From: an uncultured Dehalococcoidia bacterium
GTDB lineage: Bacteria > Chloroflexota > Dehalococcoidia > DSTF01 > RBG-16-68-14
Reading direction: 5' to 3'
Assembly (NCBI GenBank): GCA_964418365.1
Contig: CAYQLM010000001.1
Location: 24,490-88,489 of the forward strand
Length of the DNA: 64,000 nucleotides
In this document: piece by piece, positions 4,963 through 19,962 of the stretch
How the letters are laid out: each line of letters starts with the position of its first letter
Position numbering within the stretch: position 1 is the stretch's first letter
Translations under genes and position numbers: made by a program
Notes under the pieces: generated by a model
Databases searched by the model: none
Told to the model about the DNA's origin: nothing
What the model saw: only the letters and a program-made list of their open reading frames with translations

Positions 4963-5626
4963 TCGTCGCCTCCGGCAGGGGAGCGCGGCGCTTCTTCGCG
5001 CGTTCGCCGCCCCACAGCCCCTCCGCAATGCGCAGGGCGTCTTCCGTCATCAGCAGACTGCGGTACGAGAGCAGATCGAGCACGTTTAGGTATGCGGCGG
5101 GCAGCCACTTCACGCGCGGCATGTTGCCCGCGCTGCGCTTGATCATCGGTTCGGGCTGCGCGGTCACGACCAGCGTCTTGCGCTCGAATCCCAGCGTCTC
5201 GAGCAGCGACTGCAGCTCCTTCGTCTTCGGCTTCTCGAACGAGAGCATATCGATTACGCGCAGGTCGCCGTCGGCCGCCCTTGCTGACAGGACCGATCGG
5301 ATCGCGAGGCGTCGCATGCGCTTCGGCAGGTCCTGCTTGTAGCTGCGCGGCTTCGGCCCGAAGACGATGCCGCCGCCGCGCCGGTGCGGCGCCCGGATCG
5401 ATCCCTGGCGCGCGCGGCCGGTGCCTTTCTGCCGGAAGAGCTTGACCGTGCTGCCCGCGACCTCGCCACGCGTCTTGGTGCTGTGCGTCCCGCGCCGCTG
5501 GTTCGCGCGCTGCGCGAGCAGCGCCTGGTGCACCACTGCGCGCCGCGGCTTGAGCCCGAAGACCTGCTCGTCCACTTCGATGGACTTTACCTTGCTGCCG
5601 CTGCTGTTGATGACGTCCAGCTCCAT
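4955..5626 (-). CDS. rplD: 50S ribosomal protein L4
   Basis: 223 aa, ...FRQKGTGRARQGSIRAPHRRGGGIVFGPKPRSY...; L4. Confidence 0.95.
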   Translation of the reverse strand: MELDVINSSGSKVKSIEVDEQVFGLKPRRAVVHQALLAQRANQRRGTHSTKTRGEVAGSTVKLFRQKGTGRARQGSIRAPHRRGGGIVFGPKPRSYKQDLPKRMRRLAIRSVLSARAADGDLRVIDMLSFEKPKTKELQSLLETLGFERKTLVVTAQPEPMIKRSAGNMPRVKWLPAAYLNVLDLLSYRSLLMTEDALRIAEGLWGGERAKKRRAPLPEATNA

Positions 5627-6429
5627 TACGCCTTTTCTTCTGCCGAGCCTTCGTCGGCGGTTGCGCTGTCGTCGTTCGGTTCCACTTCGGTTTGGGCGAC
5701 GGCCGTCGCTGTCGCTGCCGGCTCGCCGGCCGCCGCGGCGGGCGCCTCTTCTTCCTCCGGCTCGGGCTCTGGCTCGATGACCTTGCGCTTGCCGGAGTGC
5801 GCCGCTGCCAGCGTGTCCTTCGAGAAGCGGATCTTGATGAGCCCGTTGCGCGCGCCCGGCACCGCTCCGCCAACGATGATTAGCCCGCGCGCTATGTTCG
5901 TCTCGAGCACTTCCAGGTTTCGAGTGGTGACCTGCTCCGCGCCCATGTGTCCCGGCATACGCATGCCCTTAAAGGTGCGGCCGGGTGTGTTGCCGGCGCC
6001 GATGGCGCCGGGCGCCCGGTGCCTGTCCGACTGGCCGTGCGTCTTCGGGCCGCCGGCGAAACCGTGGCGTTTCACGACCCCCGCGAAGCCGCGTCCCTTG
6101 CTCACACCCGTCACGTCGACGAGGTCGCCTTCTTGGAAGAGATCCGCGCCGTAGCGGTCGCCCAGCTTGTGGTGACTGACGTCGTCGACGCCTACCTCAC
6201 GGAGGTAGCGGAAGTCGCCGAGGCGCTTCAGGTGGCCGCGCGCCGGCTTGTTCAGCCGCTTCTTCGTGCCGAAGCCGAGCTGCACTGCCGTGTAGCCGTC
6301 CTTGATCTCTGTGCGTAGCTGTGTAATGAGGCACGGGCCGGCTTCGATCACCGTCCCGCCGCGCAGGTGGCCCTTCTTGTCGAAGACCTGGACCATGCCG
6401 AGCTTTCGCCCGAGCAGCGCCTCGATCAC
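5626..6429 (-). CDS. rplC: 50S ribosomal protein L3 with a roughly 60-aa acidic/Ala-rich C-terminal extension
   Basis: 267 aa, [20 protein letters not shown]...; tail [27 protein letters not shown]... Confidence 0.95.
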
Positions 6430-6737: not shown

Positions 6738-8831
6738 TTAGGCCCTCACCGGTTGCCTTTTCGTCGCGCTGCCAGTGATGCGGTCGGCGACATCCGGCGG
6801 CACGCGCTCGTAATGGTCGAACTCCATGCTGTAAGTGCCGCGCCCCTGCGTCAGCGAGCGCAGACCGGTCGCGTAGCCGAACGATTCCGCCAGCGGCACC
6901 AGCGCGCGAATGACCTGCAGCTTGCCGCGCGCCTCGACGCCGTGGATCTGCCCGCGCCGGCTGTTCAGATCGCCCAGCACATCACCGAACGATTCCTCCG
7001 GCGTGACGATCTCGAGCTTCATGATCGGCTCGAGCAGCATCGGGTCGGCGCGGTCCATCGCCTCGCGAATCGCGAGGATGCCCGCGTTGCGAAACGCGAT
7101 CTCGGACGAGTCGACGGGGTGGTACTTGCCGTCGAGCAGCGAGACCTGCACGTCGATGACCGGGTAGCCGCCGAGGATGCCGGTGTCGAGCGCTTGCTGC
7201 ACACCCGTCTTGACCGCCGGTATGTATTCCTTCGGGATCGAGCCGCCCTTGGTCGCGTCGACGAACTCGAAGCCGGCCCCGCGCTGTCGGGGCGCTACTT
7301 CGATCTCGACGACGCCGAACTGGCCGTGGCCGCCGGTCTGCTTGATGAAGCGTCCCTCTGCGCGCGCGCCGCGGCCGATCGCTTCCTTGTAGGCGACCTG
7401 CGGTTGGCCGATGTTGGCCTCAACGCGAAACTCGCGCAAGAGCCGGTCGGCGATGACTTCCAAGTGCAGCTCGCCCATGCCGGAGATGATCGTCTGGCCG
7501 GTCTCTTCGTCGTAGCGCGTGCGGAAGGTGGGGTCCTCTTCCGCCAGGCGGCGCAGGCTCTCGCCCAGACGCTCCTGGTCTTCCTTGCTCTTCGGCTCGA
7601 TCGCGCGCGACACCACCGGTTCTGGGAAGCGGATCGATTCGAGGACGATCGGTTGGTTTGGATCGCAGAGGGTGTCGCCGGTAAACGTGTTCTTGAAGCC
7701 GATCGCCGCGGCGATGTCGCCTGCGAAGACCTCGCTAATCTCCTCGCGCGCGTTCGCGTGCATGCGCAGCAGGCGCCCGAAGCGCTCCTTCTTGCGCTGG
7801 CCGCTGCTCATGATCTGATCGCCCTCCTTGGCGTGGCCGGAGTAGACGCGGAAATATGCCAAGCGACCCACGTATGGGTCGCTCACGATCTTAAAGGCAA
7901 GCGCGCAGAACGGCGCCGAGTCTTCGGCGTGCCGCTCCGCGAGCTCGCCGGTCTCCGGGTGGTGACCGACGATCGGGGGCACGTCAGCCGGTGATGGTAG
8001 GTAGTCAACGACGGCGTCGAGCAACGGCTGGATTCCCTTGTTCCGCAGCGAAGCGCCGCAGAGCACGGCCGTGCCCTTGCTCGCCAGCGTGATCCGGCGC
8101 AGCGCCTTCTTCAGCTCTGCCGTCGTCACCACGTGTCCCTCGACGTAGCTGATCATGAGCTGGTCGTCGAGCTCCGCCGCGCGCTCGATGAGCTTCTCGC
8201 GGTGCGATGCCGCTTCGGCTGCTAGGTTCGCCGGGATGTCTTTCACTTCTGCTTCGGCGCCCTGCTCGCCCGAGAAGACCCACGCCTTCTGCTCGATCAG
8301 ATCGATGACGCCCCGGTGGTCAGCTTCGACTCCGAGTGGGATCTGGATGGGTAGGGGGTGCGCTTCGAGGCGTTCTTTGATCATGTCGATCGTCCGCCAG
8401 TAGTCGGCGCCGACGCGGTCCATCTTGTTCACGAAGCAGATGCGCGGCACGCGATAGCGATCGGCCTGCCGCCACACGGTCTCGGACTGCGGCTCGACAC
8501 CGTGTACTGCGTCGAACACGACGATGCCGCCATCGAGCACGCGCAGGCTGCGCTCTACCTCGACGGTGAAATCGACGTGGCCCGGCGTATCGATGATGTT
8601 GATGCGGTGGCCGCTCCAGTCGGTGGTCGTCGCGGCGGCGGTGATCGTGATACCCCGCTCGCGCTCCTGCGCCATCCAGTCCATCACGGCGGTGCCTTCA
8701 TGCACCTCACCGATCTTGTACGTGCGGCCGGTGTAAAAGAGGATACGCTCGGTCACCGTCGTCTTACCCGCATCGATGTGGGCGATGATGCCGATGTTTC
8801 GTATCTGCTCGATTGGTATCTCTCGTGTCAT
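6738..8831 (-). CDS. fusA: Translation elongation factor G
   Basis: 697 aa with GTPase motifs [21 protein letters not shown]; EF-G domain order. Confidence 0.97.
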
Positions 8832-8880
8832 CTCTTACTCAATAGTTCGGGGCCGTTTACTGAGCGGCCCCGGTACTGTC

Positions 8881-9351
8881 CTACCAGCGATAATGAGCAA
8901 AGGCGCGGTTCGCCTCCGCCATCCGGTGCATGTCCAGCTTCTGCTTTACGGTGTTGCCCTGGTTCTGCGAGGCGTCCAGCAGCTCCGCTGCGAGGCGGTC
9001 CGCCATCGTGCGGCCCTTGCGTGCGCGCGACGCGTTGACGAGCCAGCGCAGCGCCAGTGCGAGCCGCCGGTCGGGGCGAATGTCGATCGGCACCTGGTAC
9101 GTTGCGCCGCCGACGCGTCGCGGTTTCACCTCGACGACGGGCGTGACATTGCGTACCGCTTCTTCGAACACCTCGACGGGGCTGCGGTTGACCTGCTGCT
9201 CGATCTGATCGAACGCCTTGTAGACGAGGCGCTCCGCGATGCTCTTCTTGCCCGAGCGCATCACCTTATTAATGAACATCGCAACGATCTGGTTGCCGTA
9301 CTTGGCATCCAGCGGAATCTTTCGCTTCGTGATTCGTGCCCGTCTTGGCAT
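8881..9351 (-). CDS. rpsG: 30S ribosomal protein S7
   Basis: 156 aa, [23 protein letters not shown]...; S7. Confidence 0.96.
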
Positions 9352-9930: not shown

Positions 9931-10231
9931 GAAGCCTCTCCTTGGCGCCCTTGTTGAAGACACAGTGAAGGCCAAAAGCCTGTTCCGAAGCCTGACCCGG
10001 CGTGGGAACGAATCCCCACTTGCGCCGGCGGTCATCACGGTCGGGGCCTTTGGCCGCGACTGAAGCTCTTCGATAGGCGCCGAAGGTGAAGTGTAACGGC
10101 CTCTCTATCGAGTGTCAAGCGAATCTGGCTTGCCTGTCGGGTGTTTCACTCAAGGCTGGCCGCGGACGCGCCGATAACTCTTGCGGGACACCCCTACGGA
10201 ACAACCCTCTTCCACAGGAGTAAGAACGCGC

Positions 10232-11101
10232 ATGCGGTTCCCCAAAGCCTGGTTGGCGAAGCACCGGACCGCAGTCTTGCGAGGAGGGCTCATGGCCGGC
10301 GGCCTGGCCCTCATCGTCGGGGCAACGGCTTTCATGCTCGGCGGAAGTTGGAGCCAGACTCGAGAGGGGGCTTCCGCCTTCGCTCCGCAGGAGACCGTCG
10401 TGCAGATTCAGCCGGCCGCGACGCCGGACGCGCCCATCGCGACGAGGGCTAGCACGGCTGTTCCAATACCTCCCGCCATCAGTTGGGCCGATGCCGCCCA
10501 GAACTGGTCTGTTATCGCACATATGCTCGTATTGACGCCGACTGCGCTGCCGCCGGCTCCGGCCTCGGCGCCGCAGCAGGTCTCGGCCCCGCCGCCGGCC
10601 TCTCAGCGCGTCGTACCCACGGCCACGCCGTTCCCGCAGCAGCAGGAGCCGCCGCCCGCGCCGGCAACGCCGACGCCTACGAGCTGTCCGACGGCGACGA
10701 TGTCCGGCTTCGCGCTCCAGCTCTTCAACGACATCAACGACCAGCGAGCGCAGAACGGCGTCCCCGCCCTGGCCGCCGACGACTGCGTGACCTACGTGGC
10801 GCAGGAGCGCTCGACCGACATGGCAACGCGCAACTACTTCTCGCACAGCAGCCCGGAGGGCACGGGCGCGTTCGATCTGCTCACGGCGAATGGGGTGCTG
10901 TACGGGTGGGCGGGCGAGAACCTGGCGCGCAACAACTACCCGGACGACCAGACGGTCGACGTCGCCATCCGCGACCTGATGGCGAGCGAGGGCCACCGCG
11001 ACAACATGCTCAGCACGAACTACACCGCCATGGGCGTCGCCGCCGTCAACGACGGCACGGGCATGTGGTACTTCACCATGGTCTTCATCGGCCCGCCGTA
11101 A
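10232..11101 (+). CDS. Membrane-anchored CAP/SCP/PR1-like domain protein (YkwD-like) with a Pro-rich linker
   Basis: N-terminal TM (LMAGGLALIVG), PAPA linker, C-terminal CAP motifs (NYFSHSSPEG, GENLARNNY, GHRDNML). ATG at 10232 with an AGGAG Shine-Dalgarno; ORF upstream extension from 10181. Confidence 0.75.
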   Translation: MRFPKAWLAKHRTAVLRGGLMAGGLALIVGATAFMLGGSWSQTREGASAFAPQETVVQIQPAATPDAPIATRASTAVPIPPAISWADAAQNWSVIAHMLVLTPTALPPAPASAPQQVSAPPPASQRVVPTATPFPQQQEPPPAPATPTPTSCPTATMSGFALQLFNDINDQRAQNGVPALAADDCVTYVAQERSTDMATRNYFSHSSPEGTGAFDLLTANGVLYGWAGENLARNNYPDDQTVDVAIRDLMASEGHRDNMLSTNYTAMGVAAVNDGTGMWYFTMVFIGPP

Positions 11102-11126
11102 TTTCCGCAAGATACGGTAGTTTGCC

Positions 11127-11155
11127 TTGACTTGCACCATATCTCGGGTATAATT
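11127..11155 (+). promoter_or_regulatory. Consensus sigma70-type promoter TTGACT-17 nt-TATAAT
   Basis: TTGACT at 11127-11132, 17-nt spacer, TATAAT at 11150-11155, inside an AT-rich stretch about 85 nt upstream of the 11242 gene. Confidence 0.5.
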
Positions 11156-11241
11156 AAGCTGGACTTTGATCCCCAAATCAAGTCTGCTGAGTTCGTCAAT
11201 CATCGGATAGCTAGTCTCTCCTCTGCGAAAGGAGTCGCCCC

Positions 11242-12204
11242 GTGGGTCGTAAGGCTAATCGAGCACGACGCGGTTCTCTAACAAGGCCACAGCCCGCTAT
11301 CCCAAGCCTGGCAATGCCCGCGTCAGCGTCTGCGGCAACCGCACAGTATCGCCGCGCTCGCGCCCTAATCGGTTTCCTTCCAGAACCAGAGGCAGTGAGA
11401 CTTCTGCTCGGGCGCCTTCCGACTCCTGGCGAGGATACTGCTGTCACTGAGAAAGAGGCCGCCAGAAAGCGGTCAAATGTAGAGACTCGACGGCCGTATG
11501 AGCCGTCGGATCCTGAAATTTCCATTGATGATCGCTCAGGTCTTGAGGAAATCGCGAGGCGGCCCGAAATTCAGGCTTCGTTTGCTCCTTTCAACTGGCG
11601 GATCGCCCAAATCGACTTGACTCGGGTGCTGGCCTTTCAGCCGTTGGTCAGCCTACAGAATCTGGACGCCCGGATGATGGGTGTGCTCGAGGGGAGGGAG
11701 TCCCTCTCTGAATTCTGTCTGCCGAATGACCAGACGCCATCTTCAGCGGCATTCTCTCAAGATTCAGACAGTAGGGGCGTAGCCATCAGCTCGCCAAACC
11801 CGAATCTGCGCATAGCCGGTTCTGGAGTTGCCAATGTCGAAGTGCCAGGGCCGGCCGGCTCGCCGCCACTGAAGGCAGTGGCTCTTCAAACGTTTGTGAC
11901 ACTCAATTGCAGCTCCGTGCAGGTAGTTCGGTACTCCAATCGCTCTTTCATAAGAGATGGATATCATCGAGCCGCGGGTCTTCTGCGCGCAGGAATCAAC
12001 AATTGTCCGTGTATCTTCATTGAAGCTCGGAGCATGGATGAAATCGGTCGCGGCGCAGGGACAGTTCCTGAACAAGTTCTATTTGGCGACCGGCCGCCTC
12101 TTCTCGCCGACTTTTGGAACGATGAGGTGTCGAGTGAGGTAGCTCAGGCCGTGACGATGAAAGTTGTGAGAATGCGTGGCGATGAGTTCATGGTCCCGAT
12201 TTGA
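11242..12204 (+). CDS. Hypothetical protein encoded on a low-GC (about 54%) island
   Basis: 320-aa ORF with GTG start after a GAAAGGAG Shine-Dalgarno. No recognisable domain. Codon usage is A/T-ending, atypical for the window. Confidence 0.55.
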   Translation: MGRKANRARRGSLTRPQPAIPSLAMPASASAATAQYRRARALIGFLPEPEAVRLLLGRLPTPGEDTAVTEKEAARKRSNVETRRPYEPSDPEISIDDRSGLEEIARRPEIQASFAPFNWRIAQIDLTRVLAFQPLVSLQNLDARMMGVLEGRESLSEFCLPNDQTPSSAAFSQDSDSRGVAISSPNPNLRIAGSGVANVEVPGPAGSPPLKAVALQTFVTLNCSSVQVVRYSNRSFIRDGYHRAAGLLRAGINNCPCIFIEARSMDEIGRGAGTVPEQVLFGDRPPLLADFWNDEVSSEVAQAVTMKVVRMRGDEFMVPI

Positions 12205-12224
12205 CCGACTTTTACGTCTAACGT

Positions 12225-13586
12225 TTACGCGACCCTCTCTAGCTCTACGAAGTAGGAGGCGCAGGCGAGGTCGAGCCACTCCGCCGTGAGCGTGGGCTCT
12301 TTGCCGTAGAACTTCGTGATGTCGACAAGCAGCTCGACCAGGTCGCGCGGGTGGCATGCCTTCGGCTGCTGCGACTGGTTGCTCCGGTACATCTGCAGCA
12401 AGTACTGCGCGCCCTCGTCGCTGTAGGCAACGCCCTTCTGCGCACAGACGCGCCGCAGGATCTCCAAGTAGTCTTCCTCGGTCGGGTTCGGCACCTCAAC
12501 CTTGTGCCGGATGCGGCGGAAGAACGCCTCGTCGCCCAGCTTCCCGGGCGGGATGTTCGACGAAAAGACGAGCAGCACGTCGAACGGCAACTCTACCGTG
12601 TCGCCGGTGTGCACCGAGAGGTGGTCCGTACCCTGCTCCATCGGCACGATCCAGCGGTTCAGCAATTCCTGCGGCTGGATGGCCTGGCGGCCGAAGTCGT
12701 CGATGATCAGCACGCCGCTGTTCGCCTTCCACTGCAGCGGCGCGATGTAGAACTGCGAGATCGATGAATAGCGCAGCTCCAGGTCCTGCAACGTCAGCTC
12801 GCCGCCCACGCTCACCAACGGGCGCTTGGTCAGCGCCCAGCGCGCGTCTCGCCGGCGCTCCCGGCCGGCGATCGTCTGCGCCAGGCGGCGGCGCTCTTCC
12901 AGGATCAGCGGGTCGATGCGCTTGTGCAGCCTCGGGTCGAAGACCTTCACGATCTGCCCGTGCACGACGACCGCGTACGGTACCACGACTTCGCCGGGCA
13001 GCATGTCACCGATCGCCGTGGTGATCGAGCTCTTGCCATTGCCAGCGCCGCCGTAGATCAGTAGCGATCGCGCGGAGTTCAGCGCCGGACCCAGTCGCGC
13101 GAGCACCGTCTTGTTCAGTACCAGGTGCGACAGGCCGTTCATGTAGGTCTCGGTGTCGATCTCGATGCTGGTGACCGACTGGCGGCGCAGCACCTCGACG
13201 TACAGCTCGAAGGGCACCGGCGTCGGGCCGACGTAATGGCTGCGCGCGAGCGCTTCTTCCGCTTTCTTGCGTCCGCGGTCGGTCAGCGAGTACTGGTACG
13301 CCTGCTCGCCGACGCCCGCGCTGCCGACGACTTCGAGCACCTGCTCGCGGCGCAGGAACGTGATCAGCTCGGTCATGACGGGGAACGAAAGGCACAGCTG
13401 GTCAGAAAGCACCCGGCCGGAAGGCCGGCCGTAGAAGTAGATCGTCTTCAGTGTGAGATCGACCAGCATCGAGAGCTCGAGGCCGGTCTCTTCGACCGAG
13501 CTCGGCTGCGAGACGAACGGCGCTTCGCCGTCTGCGGATTGGTCGTGGTCTACCGTTACGGAGAGCGTTGGGGACTCTGCAATCAT
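12225..13586 (-). CDS. P-loop NTPase of the AAA+ superfamily with an N-terminal winged-helix-like domain
   Basis: Walker A LLIYGGAGNGKSSI; Walker B VLIIDDFGRQ followed by SSNIPP. This resembles the IstB/DnaC/TniB-style motifs, but the protein is 453 aa and no transposase is nearby. Confidence 0.6.
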   Translation of the reverse strand: MIAESPTLSVTVDHDQSADGEAPFVSQPSSVEETGLELSMLVDLTLKTIYFYGRPSGRVLSDQLCLSFPVMTELITFLRREQVLEVVGSAGVGEQAYQYSLTDRGRKKAEEALARSHYVGPTPVPFELYVEVLRRQSVTSIEIDTETYMNGLSHLVLNKTVLARLGPALNSARSLLIYGGAGNGKSSITTAIGDMLPGEVVVPYAVVVHGQIVKVFDPRLHKRIDPLILEERRRLAQTIAGRERRRDARWALTKRPLVSVGGELTLQDLELRYSSISQFYIAPLQWKANSGVLIIDDFGRQAIQPQELLNRWIVPMEQGTDHLSVHTGDTVELPFDVLLVFSSNIPPGKLGDEAFFRRIRHKVEVPNPTEEDYLEILRRVCAQKGVAYSDEGAQYLLQMYRSNQSQQPKACHPRDLVELLVDITKFYGKEPTLTAEWLDLACASYFVELERVA

Positions 13587-19030: not shown

Positions 19031-19247
19031 CTCCCTAGCATCGACTCACCTTCATCTTACGGGCAGTCTGCGAAGCCCCTATCGGCCGGAGTTCGAGTCT
19101 GGAGCCGCATGTCTTTCGACCCCTTCAGATGGGCTAGGGGTTTACCGATGATGTCATCAGGGAACACACGTAAGGGAATGCCCGGCGAACATGGCGCTCC
19201 TAGAGCGGCCCGCGTCGGAGTCTGGAGAAGGGAAAGGAGGACAACGA

Positions 19248-19463
19248 ATGCAACTGCTCAACGAAGCGCTGCTGCGTATCCTCACCGGTTGGCACGGGCT
19301 TCAGGCTCGGGCGCAGGATGAGGAAGGGCAGACCCTGGCGGAGTACGGCCTGATTATGGCCGTCATCGCCGTGGCGGTCGTGGTTCTTGCGGTGACCGTG
19401 TTCCGCAACGCGATCGTGGGTGCCTTCAACGGCGCCGTCGACTGTCTAGACGGAAGCTGCTAA
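19248..19463 (+). CDS. flp: Flp-family type IVb prepilin, copy 1
   Basis: Leader MQLLNEALLRILTGWHGLQARAQDEEG, then QTLAEYGLIMAVIAVAVVVLAV (Flp G/xxxxEY motif). ATG 19248 with a GGAAAGGAGG Shine-Dalgarno. The ORF N-terminal extension from 19191 is unlikely. Confidence 0.85.
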   Translation: MQLLNEALLRILTGWHGLQARAQDEEGQTLAEYGLIMAVIAVAVVVLAVTVFRNAIVGAFNGAVDCLDGSC

Positions 19464-19746: not shown

Positions 19747-19962
19747 ATGCAACTGCTGAATGAAGCCCTGCTCCGCATCCTCACTGGGTGGCACGGGCTC
19801 CAGGCTCGGGCCGAGGACGAGGATGGGCAGACGCTGGCAGAGTACGGCCTCATTATGGCCGTCATCGCCGTGGCGGTTGTCGTCCTGGCCGTGACCGTGT
19901 TCCGCAACGCGATCGTAGGGGCCTTCAACGGCGCCGTCGACTGTCTAGACGGAAGCTGCTAA
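19747..19962 (+). CDS. flp: Flp-family type IVb prepilin, copy 2 (tandem paralog)
   Basis: 71 aa, identical mature region. Two conservative leader differences (Q to E, E to D). GGAGGGAGGG Shine-Dalgarno. Confidence 0.85.
   Translation: MQLLNEALLRILTGWHGLQARAEDEDGQTLAEYGLIMAVIAVAVVVLAVTVFRNAIVGAFNGAVDCLDGSC

Follow-up and report, generated by a model that had tools for sequence, protein, structure and literature searches.

Results and discussion

Between a CAP-domain gene and a convergently transcribed AAA-type ATPase gene of an uncultured Dehalococcoidia bacterium (assembly GCA_964418365.1, contig CAYQLM010000001.1) lies a low-GC segment, which we call the island, that carries a single protein-coding gene, here called T, together with a promoter-like site and a Shine-Dalgarno-like motif (Table 1). 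We examined this segment within a stretch of 64,000 nucleotides, hereafter the window, to which all coordinates refer unless another sequence is named. The product of T is a 320-residue protein of an uncharacterised family with a ParB/sulfiredoxin (Srx) fold, and the contexts in which members of this family occur form the second subject of this report.

Composition and borders of the island

The segment 11100-12230 has a GC content of 55.3%, compared with a mean of 65.3% (standard deviation 2.3%) for all 1130-bp windows, making it the lowest-GC stretch of that length in the 64 kb, about 4.3 standard deviations below the mean. In the sliding profile, GC falls from 0.67-0.70 to 0.53-0.60 from about 11050 to about 12400. 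Within the open reading frame (ORF) of T, GC at first and second codon positions is host-like (GC1 0.65, GC2 0.51), whereas GC at third positions (GC3) is only 0.54; across the 60 called genes of the window GC3 averages 0.83 (standard deviation 0.067), and the next lowest value after that of T is 0.67. The 140 bp of non-coding sequence 5' of T are likewise AT-rich. At the right border, the T stop codon (12202-12204) lies 20 nt from the stop codon of the convergent ATPase gene (12225-12227). A first-pass annotation made from the sequence had proposed a recent horizontal insertion on the grounds of a GC drop, a shift to A/T-ending codons and an end coinciding with the ATPase stop codon, and these three compositional and border claims are borne out by the sliding-window GC and GC3 calculations and by the spacing of the stop codons.

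Absence from close relatives and a variable site

Comparison with related genomes, which the same annotation had put forward as a check, agrees with the proposed insertion. Three contigs (L168, L169 and L170), whose ATPase is 96% identical in amino acids, are collinear with the window at about 92.6% nucleotide identity and have the CAP and ATPase genes adjacent. In all three, blastn homology to the window breaks off exactly with the CAP stop codon (11100) and starts again exactly with that of the ATPase (12225), with the same site occupied by a 330-bp, 67% GC spacer that has no similarity to the island. In this spacer (1027-1356 of L169 and 602-931 of L168, both in reverse complement), a repeat of about 75 bp (including TCCTGAGCCGAGAGGGGCGGGGAACGCAACGG) occurs twice, and there are also GC-rich palindromes (GGGGCGCATGGCCATGCGCCCC) and a duplicate of the ATPase 3' end, a content that suggests an insertion resembling a miniature inverted-repeat transposable element (MITE); its repeat is absent from the window. 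Two further relatives, L171 and L172, also lack T at the syntenic site and hold other cargo in the same spacer (7439-9225 and 7435-7937, respectively). One of them, at 86% identity, has an ABC-transporter pair there; the other, at 80%, has small ORFs of 75 and 92 aa that have no Pfam match and are possibly a toxin-antitoxin pair. Because the cargo differs from relative to relative, the CAP-ATPase spacer is a recurrent insertion hot spot. The CAP-T-ATPase order itself is found identically in two separate Logan assemblies (Sequence Read Archive runs SRR6155509 and SRR6155504), and is thus not a chimeric join.

Since the third codon positions of T are unameliorated and the gene is missing from relatives only ~7% apart in nucleotide sequence, the gain is best dated as recent, and the observations on both sides of the site support recent horizontal acquisition of 11101-12224. 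An opposite history, in which T is native and old, its low GC reflects a constraint specific to the family and a deletion removed it from the close relatives, is very improbable. It could draw on the finding that T lies below the GC of its flanks in 72 of 82 loci, as well as on the derived character of the relatives' spacer, with its MITE-like repeats and duplicated ATPase 3' end. However, host-like GC1 and GC2 combined with an aberrant GC3 is the pattern of unameliorated foreign DNA, stably vertical copies of T elsewhere (in cobalamin operons or next to NrdJ, see below) stay within 0-2% of host GC, T is missing from the site in each of three relatives of increasing distance, and the AT-rich 140 bp upstream are themselves unrelated to the relatives' spacer. 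The recently acquired island resembles ordinary genomic islets, that is, single-gene intergenic insertions, in its atypical GC and GC3, its absence from close relatives and the variable content of its site; it differs from them in having no recombinase, tRNA or repeat signature and in a replacement that is exact from stop codon to stop codon.

Expression signals

The promoter described in the first-pass annotation, TTGACT-17-TATAAT, holds as to its hexamers and fails as to its spacing: TTGACT (11127-11132) and TATAAT (11149-11154) are separated by 16 nt, still a near-consensus pair within the 16-18 nt spacing of sigma70-type promoters and 5' of the gene, with the -10 element ending 87 nt before the GTG start of T. 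At 11 of 12 consensus positions, it is the sole match of at least 11/12 on both strands of the 64-kb window, where 0.03 such matches are expected from Markov-1 simulations. An alternative ATG at 11314 has no Shine-Dalgarno-like motif before it comparable to that of the GTG start. From these elements we infer that T is transcribed by the primary sigma factor of the host, and its expression might be high, as the first-pass annotation had it, judging from the consensus promoter and the good ribosome-binding site. A native promoter-like sequence, TTGACA-17-TACACT, is present at 10118 on the minus strand, where it precedes the rpsL-rpsG-fusA operon and is oriented away from the CAP gene, which suggests that the host uses canonical sigma70-type promoters.

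The terminator-like hairpin at the end of T is a weak feature, as such hairpins are no more numerous in the region than expected by chance. Rfam gave no match in the whole window at gathering thresholds, nor in 11000-12300 at E <= 1, and the predicted folding of the 5' untranslated region of T is no stronger than that of shuffled sequence (z = 0.31).

Table 1. Features of the island and its flanks (window coordinates).
Feature	Position	Strand	Remarks
CAP/SCP-domain gene, native left flank, outside the island	10181..11101	+	Pfam CAP E = 1.8e-18; GC3 0.85; kept in relatives
Foreign island	11101..12224		Entire CAP-ATPase intergenic segment; not homologous to what close relatives have there
Sigma70-type promoter-like site, TTGACT-16 nt-TATAAT	11127..11154	+	11/12 consensus match
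Shine-Dalgarno-like motif AAAGGAG	11228..11234	+	7 nt before the GTG start; from reading of the sequence
Gene T, encoding a 320-aa ParB/Srx-fold protein of an uncharacterised family	11242..12204	+	GTG start
Codons of D239-G-Y-H-R243, invariant motif at a strand-helix junction	11956..11970	+	Counterpart of SerK DGHHR
Weak terminator-like hairpin, then ACTTTTACGT	12191..12207	+	Overlaps the T stop codon; 5 pairs, 3 of them G-C
AAA-type ATPase gene, native convergent right flank, outside the island	12225..13586	-	Weak AAA_16 and IetA matches

A large family without a name

T had been called an orphan gene, a label that does not survive comparison with sequence databases. A word-indexed search returned 161 homologs of about 300 aa and about 40-51% identity, all of them unnamed or 'hypothetical', while an exhaustive profile search gave 1,524 cluster representatives at E <= 1e-3, 270 of them at E <= 1e-30; the window protein is the sole member of its 50% cluster. 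Scans of genomes and metagenomes contributed 80 further T loci each (160 in all), with hosts in the Actinomycetota, Acidobacteriota, Saccharibacteria, Pseudomonadota, Bacteroidota and Vulcanimicrobiota and in one Thermoplasmata metagenome-assembled genome, mostly from soil or peat; the source names of the word-indexed homologs also include Dormibacteria and Ktedonobacterales. The companion claim of no recognisable domain is right insofar as Pfam has no match, and wrong in that homologs are many and a ParB/Srx fold is recognisable in the structural model. The window protein has no significant match among the models of Pfam, NCBIfam, PADLOC and PHROGs, the PADLOC result meaning that T corresponds to no anti-phage defence modelled there, and neither phage records nor IMG/VR contain matches to the family. 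The literature searched holds no description of it and mentions a DGYHR motif only in one unrelated paper. Judged by these searches, the family is undescribed and unnamed, with about 1,500 cluster representatives.

Across 147 members drawn from all contexts, the residues conserved in at least 86% are W119, D125, Q133, S184, N186, P187, R234, F236, R238-D-G-Y-H-R243, P256, P285-P286, D290-F291, K307, R310 and E315. Within the RDGYHR motif, G240, H242 and R243 are invariant, D239 is present in 99-100% and R238 and Y241 in 96-100%. The window protein keeps every one of these residues and departs from the family at three other well-conserved positions, carrying Phe in place of W45, Pro in place of K/R134 and Asn in place of G222. 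Family members are acidic (median isoelectric point about 5.4), as is the core of the window protein (5.3), which has an additional basic N-terminus of 36 aa. Some members carry further segments: P0258 (366 aa) has a sub-threshold N-terminal match to Multiubiquitin (PF14452; E = 4.8e-5, 23.9 bits against a cutoff of 24.5), a domain from bacterial ubiquitin-like conflict systems, and P0344, P0347 and P0385 are extended at the C-terminus by about 170 aa in which Pfam recognises no domain.

Fold and proposed chemistry

The model of T consists of an N-terminal helical region followed by a core with the characteristic alpha/beta arrangement of the ParB/Srx fold, in which the R-D-G-Y-H-R motif is placed at a strand-helix junction, as are phosphate-binding motifs of the G-x-x-R or DGHHR type. 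Fold comparison gave figures of 9.7 and 8.0 for sulfiredoxin, 8.1 for PadC, 7.8 for Atu1540, 7.5 each for the pNOB8 ParB N-terminal domain and the free serine kinase SerK, 7.2 for SbnI and 6.4 for KorB. A profile search of PDB sequences aligned the family's RDGYHRA with the DGHHR of SerK (5x0j) at E about 0.5. With proteins of the ParB/Srx superfamily (SerK, PDB 5x0b; SbnI, 5ujd; sulfiredoxin, 6ky4 and 1yzs) T shares the common core, over which about 85-110 of its 320 residues superpose; beyond that core it adds the N-terminal helical region, a beta-hairpin insert with S-x-N-P-N-L and a C-terminal PPxxxDF / KxxR segment, all three being conserved within the T family only. T was compared with SerK and SbnI in the fold and in one motif, DGHHR.

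T could alternatively be an NTP-gated DNA-binding protein or nuclease like ParB, KorB or Osa (NTP, nucleoside triphosphate), with DNA as its target instead of small molecules or proteins, for example in defence or plasmid interference. We consider this quite unlikely: the model contains no helix-turn-helix (HTH) or other DNA-binding domain, the family and the window core are acidic, there are no PADLOC or phage matches, and distant members with the same motifs are fixed in biosynthetic operons. Because T is acidic, has no HTH and keeps the same conserved residues in its biosynthetic-operon branches, we infer that it is an enzyme rather than a DNA binder. Our best guess as to its chemistry, by analogy with the ParB/Srx enzymes SerK, SbnI and sulfiredoxin, would be a nucleotide-dependent phosphotransferase acting on a hydroxyl group of a free amino acid, a peptide or a protein; for the branch to which the window copy belongs, candidate substrates would be a RES toxin, the target of that toxin or a metabolite.

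The mobile branch and its neighbours

Gene contexts were analysed at 168 T loci. In 34 of them, an Xre/ParS-like antitoxin gene of about 275 aa, a RES-domain gene of about 185 aa and T follow one another on one strand (for example L001 6652-8966, L085 1075-2512, L086 396-2712 and L087 5466-7792, along with about 30 metagenome loci), and of 77 close relatives for which 700 bp or more of sequence upstream is available, 31 have T as the last gene, after the Xre-RES toxin-antitoxin pair. The T start overlaps or abuts the RES stop codon in this arrangement, the overlap being 4-11 nt in L085 and L086. The RES assignment rests on Pfam matches of 35 and 25 bits, above the 23.2 cutoff, and the Xre-like antitoxin gives weak matches to HTH_31 and to the NCBIfam model Xre_ParS (NF049845). 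Described type II RES-Xre systems (MbcTA/ParST; COG5654-COG5642; Makarova et al. 2009, PMC2701414) have two genes. Operons of the T family resemble them in placing T immediately 3' of RES and Xre/ParS-like genes, and differ in adding T as a third gene and in an extra N-terminal part of 170 aa on the antitoxin; the window copy differs further in having neither RES nor Xre beside it.

A second set of neighbours consists of HTH/Peptidase_M78 genes (ImmA/IrrE, COG2856-type), which adjoin T in 13 of 168 loci, often divergently. The spacer between T and the divergent gene contains repeated operator-like GTTTGACATCAGACGCA motifs: in L004, upstream of T at about 7850-8000 (also in L005, L119, L133, L136 and L142), there are three GTTTGACATCAGACGCA-like copies and a TTGACA-18-TATCCT sequence, and in the HTH-M78 clade these repeats look like an operator array. 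ORFs called upstream of T in such loci ('c3') were discarded as spurious antisense ORFs over the divergent HTH-M78 gene. COG2856-Xre modules are known to have a variable third gene, usually a RelE or PIN toxin (PMC2701414). The T loci are like them in that an HTH and M78 protein, or a fusion of the two, adjoins T, the M78 regulator being divergently transcribed in the clade nearest the window copy; they differ in having a ParB/Srx protein as third gene, and the window has no such regulator. Many T copies are solo, as in the window: their neighbours lie on the opposite strand and an AT-rich spacer precedes them. Some loci of the mobile branch also have an integrase, type III restriction-modification genes or GmrSD.

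The median GC of T minus that of its flanks is -8.7% for RES-linked copies (n = 13), -4% for other contexts, -2.1% both for copies with HTH/M78 neighbours and for those in cobalamin operons, and -0.2% for NrdJ-linked ones; for the window copy the difference is -9.2%. The mobile branch usually presents a gene of 54-59% GC in hosts of 65-69% GC, and since its T genes are systematically below host GC, the low-GC island of the window is typical of this branch in high-GC genomes. A rough neighbour-joining tree puts the window T on a long branch beside the clade with HTH/M78 neighbours, outside the RES-linked clade.

The tight coupling of T to RES, seen in the 31 of 77 close relatives and in the overlapping reading frames, raises the alternative that T regulates or neutralises RES-type NAD+-targeting toxins as their partner, whether antitoxin-like or as an enzymatic 'type VII' antitoxin, the solo window copy with its strong promoter being an orphan anti-addiction gene directed against incoming Xre-RES cassettes. 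It fits that a toxin would hardly be expected as a lone gene with a constitutive-looking promoter, and 30 of 39 members weakly match Pfam PF23719, 'Antitoxin VapB-like', over DGYHR. These matches are, however, far under the threshold of 27 bits; Xre-RES-T operons already encode a canonical Xre/ParS-like antitoxin; the window T falls outside the RES-linked clade, with no RES gene in the window; and the same conserved residues are found in cobalamin operons that have no toxin. We therefore hold this antitoxin role to be doubtful.

Taken with the comparison of relatives, these contexts lead us to read 11101-12224 as a recently and horizontally acquired single-gene cassette whose T is an intact ParB/Srx-fold member of the mobile-cargo branch, a reading to which we give a probability of roughly 0.8. 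The anomalous composition, the absence from close relatives, the family membership, the fold and the gene contexts are established by observation. The cassette comprises promoter, ribosome-binding site and T and fills the spacer between two native convergent genes of a soil Chloroflexota genome, and T genes of this branch are carried solo, as the last gene of an Xre-RES operon, or beside HTH/ImmA-IrrE regulators in integrase, restriction and defence neighbourhoods. A solo copy could plausibly act as a stand-alone modifying or neutralising enzyme, either left over from RES-type cassettes or protecting against them.

Several findings weigh against this reading. The usual signatures of mobility are absent: both neighbours of the island are native, with no integrase or transposase, target-site duplication or inverted repeat flanking it, the 64-kb window has no tRNA that might serve as an integration site, and the direct and inverted repeats around the island are short matches at chance level. 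The nearest T homolog is at most 51% identical, so that no donor can be named. The window contains no RES or Xre gene, tblastn with four RES and three full-length Xre-like proteins giving no match, by which a RES or Xre remnant was likewise rejected. The Pro at the position otherwise K/R134 could affect the activity of the window protein. As for the fold, Foldseek retrieves the same ParB/Srx proteins, yet only at E >= 0.08; the window protein matches no curated ParB model (ParBc PF02195, ParBc_2, PFIN or NCBIfam), and the sequence-profile links of the family to ParB/Srx families are all sub-threshold (PFIN in 4 of 39 other members, ParBc_2 at E = 0.0067 in one). The PF23719 matches reach 13-15 bits and cover the motif region only.

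Cobalamin and plasmid branches

The largest context group comprises 68-69 loci, mostly of Acidobacteriaceae, in which a T gene 25-33% identical to that of the window lies in a cobalamin operon, in the order CobT-CobC-T-PduO-BluB-CobQ in 57 of 69 and with the conserved residues of the mobile branch. In Edaphobacter modestus DSM 18101 (L022, NZ_SHKW01000001.1, T at 7791-8630; 68 others lie among L012-L084), the operon encodes CobN, a chelatase subunit, CobU, CobB, CobT, CobS, CobC, T, PduO, BluB, CobQ, CbiB and CobD. L-threonine kinase is the only nucleotide-loop enzyme for which this operon has no gene, and for that reason the T of this branch is a candidate non-GHMP L-threonine kinase. Every L-threonine kinase known so far (PduX, BluE and DabA) belongs to the GHMP family (PMC10906522), and one hand-written regular expression for GHMP kinase motif II, a weak test, found no match in the cobalamin loci. 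A functional analogy to PduX and BluE would apply to the distant Acidobacteriaceae branch only: their fold is unrelated to that of T, and the window T is only 25-30% identical to the cobalamin branch and stands in another context. Apparent 'tandem paralogs of T' in Acidobacteriaceae proved to be an artefact of single-linkage clustering, the neighbours being CobC, PduO, CobD and the like. Five loci (L007, L008, L159, L166 and L167; Candidatus Sulfotelmatobacter / Acidoferrum-like) offer a second, independent link to B12, with a T of about 38% identity and host-like GC directly 3' of the class II B12-dependent ribonucleotide reductase gene (NrdJ).

On two alphaproteobacterial megaplasmids, a distant T member heads an operon with an HlyD adaptor and a C39-peptidase ABC exporter. 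It is preceded by a small conserved ORF, about 50 aa long, whose product combines a double-glycine-type leader (VYGAG) with a repetitive, Ser-rich core; the Paracoccus record leaves this ORF unannotated. The two pairs of genes lie at 5458-5613 and 5716-6675 of L175 (Methylobacterium nodulans pMNOD02; motif NGHHRA) and at 5479-5631 and 5734-6711 of L174 (a Paracoccus liaowanqingii plasmid; motif NGYHRA). The arrangement looks like a cluster for a bacteriocin or for a ribosomally synthesised and post-translationally modified peptide.

The cobalamin-operon and Ser-rich-precursor contexts both fit phosphotransfer to a hydroxyl. A broader proposal, which we offer tentatively and with low confidence, is that the T family constitutes an unrecognised ParB/Srx-fold clade of kinases for Ser/Thr hydroxyls on different substrates: in Acidobacteriaceae, the cobalamin branch would be the L-threonine kinase so far missing, one outside the GHMP family; Ser-rich double-glycine precursor peptides would be the substrates of the plasmid branch; and the mobile branch, the strongly promoted window copy included, would enzymatically modify the RES toxin or its target. 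If true, Xre-RES-T would represent a new three-component type of toxin-antitoxin system, with solo copies as anti-addiction genes.

Flanking genes and other features of the window

Orthologs of the ATPase are 60-96% identical across many contigs, those with names being labelled Chloroflexi/Chloroflexota or Dehalococcoidia, and T is next to the ATPase in none of the ATPase-bearing relatives examined. A functional link of T to either flanking gene was considered and rejected, as relatives of neither the ATPase nor the CAP gene occur in the T-family loci L001-L167 and the ATPase occurs without T in every relative examined. Among 8,000 scored candidates, 7,959 are homologs of the ATPase at E <= 1e-20, and the gene is highly conserved in Chloroflexota. 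Its matches to known models are all sub-threshold: AAA_16 at 24.5 bits, and the anti-phage ATPase IetA/IteA at E = 4e-6 in PADLOC and 0.014 in NCBIfam. Elsewhere in the window, two tandem small genes on the plus strand (19191-19463 and 19747-19962) share identical C-terminal parts of 71 residues; in position and size they match a 71-aa Flp_Fap gene called in relative L172, and the stretch around them, at 60.6% GC, is lower in GC than any other 1-kb bin outside the island.

Conclusions

In itself, the island is a routine but unusually clean acquisition of a single gene at a variable intergenic hot spot. What gives it value is its gene, a member of a ParB/Srx family of about 1,500 clusters for which Pfam, NCBIfam, PADLOC and PHROGs have no model. 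Three associations of T are informative: as a third gene of Xre-RES operons, in a fixed slot of Acidobacteriaceae cobalamin operons, and with Ser-rich precursors and a C39-ABC exporter. Together, these associations could widen what is known about the chemistry of both ParB/Srx enzymes and RES-type toxin systems.

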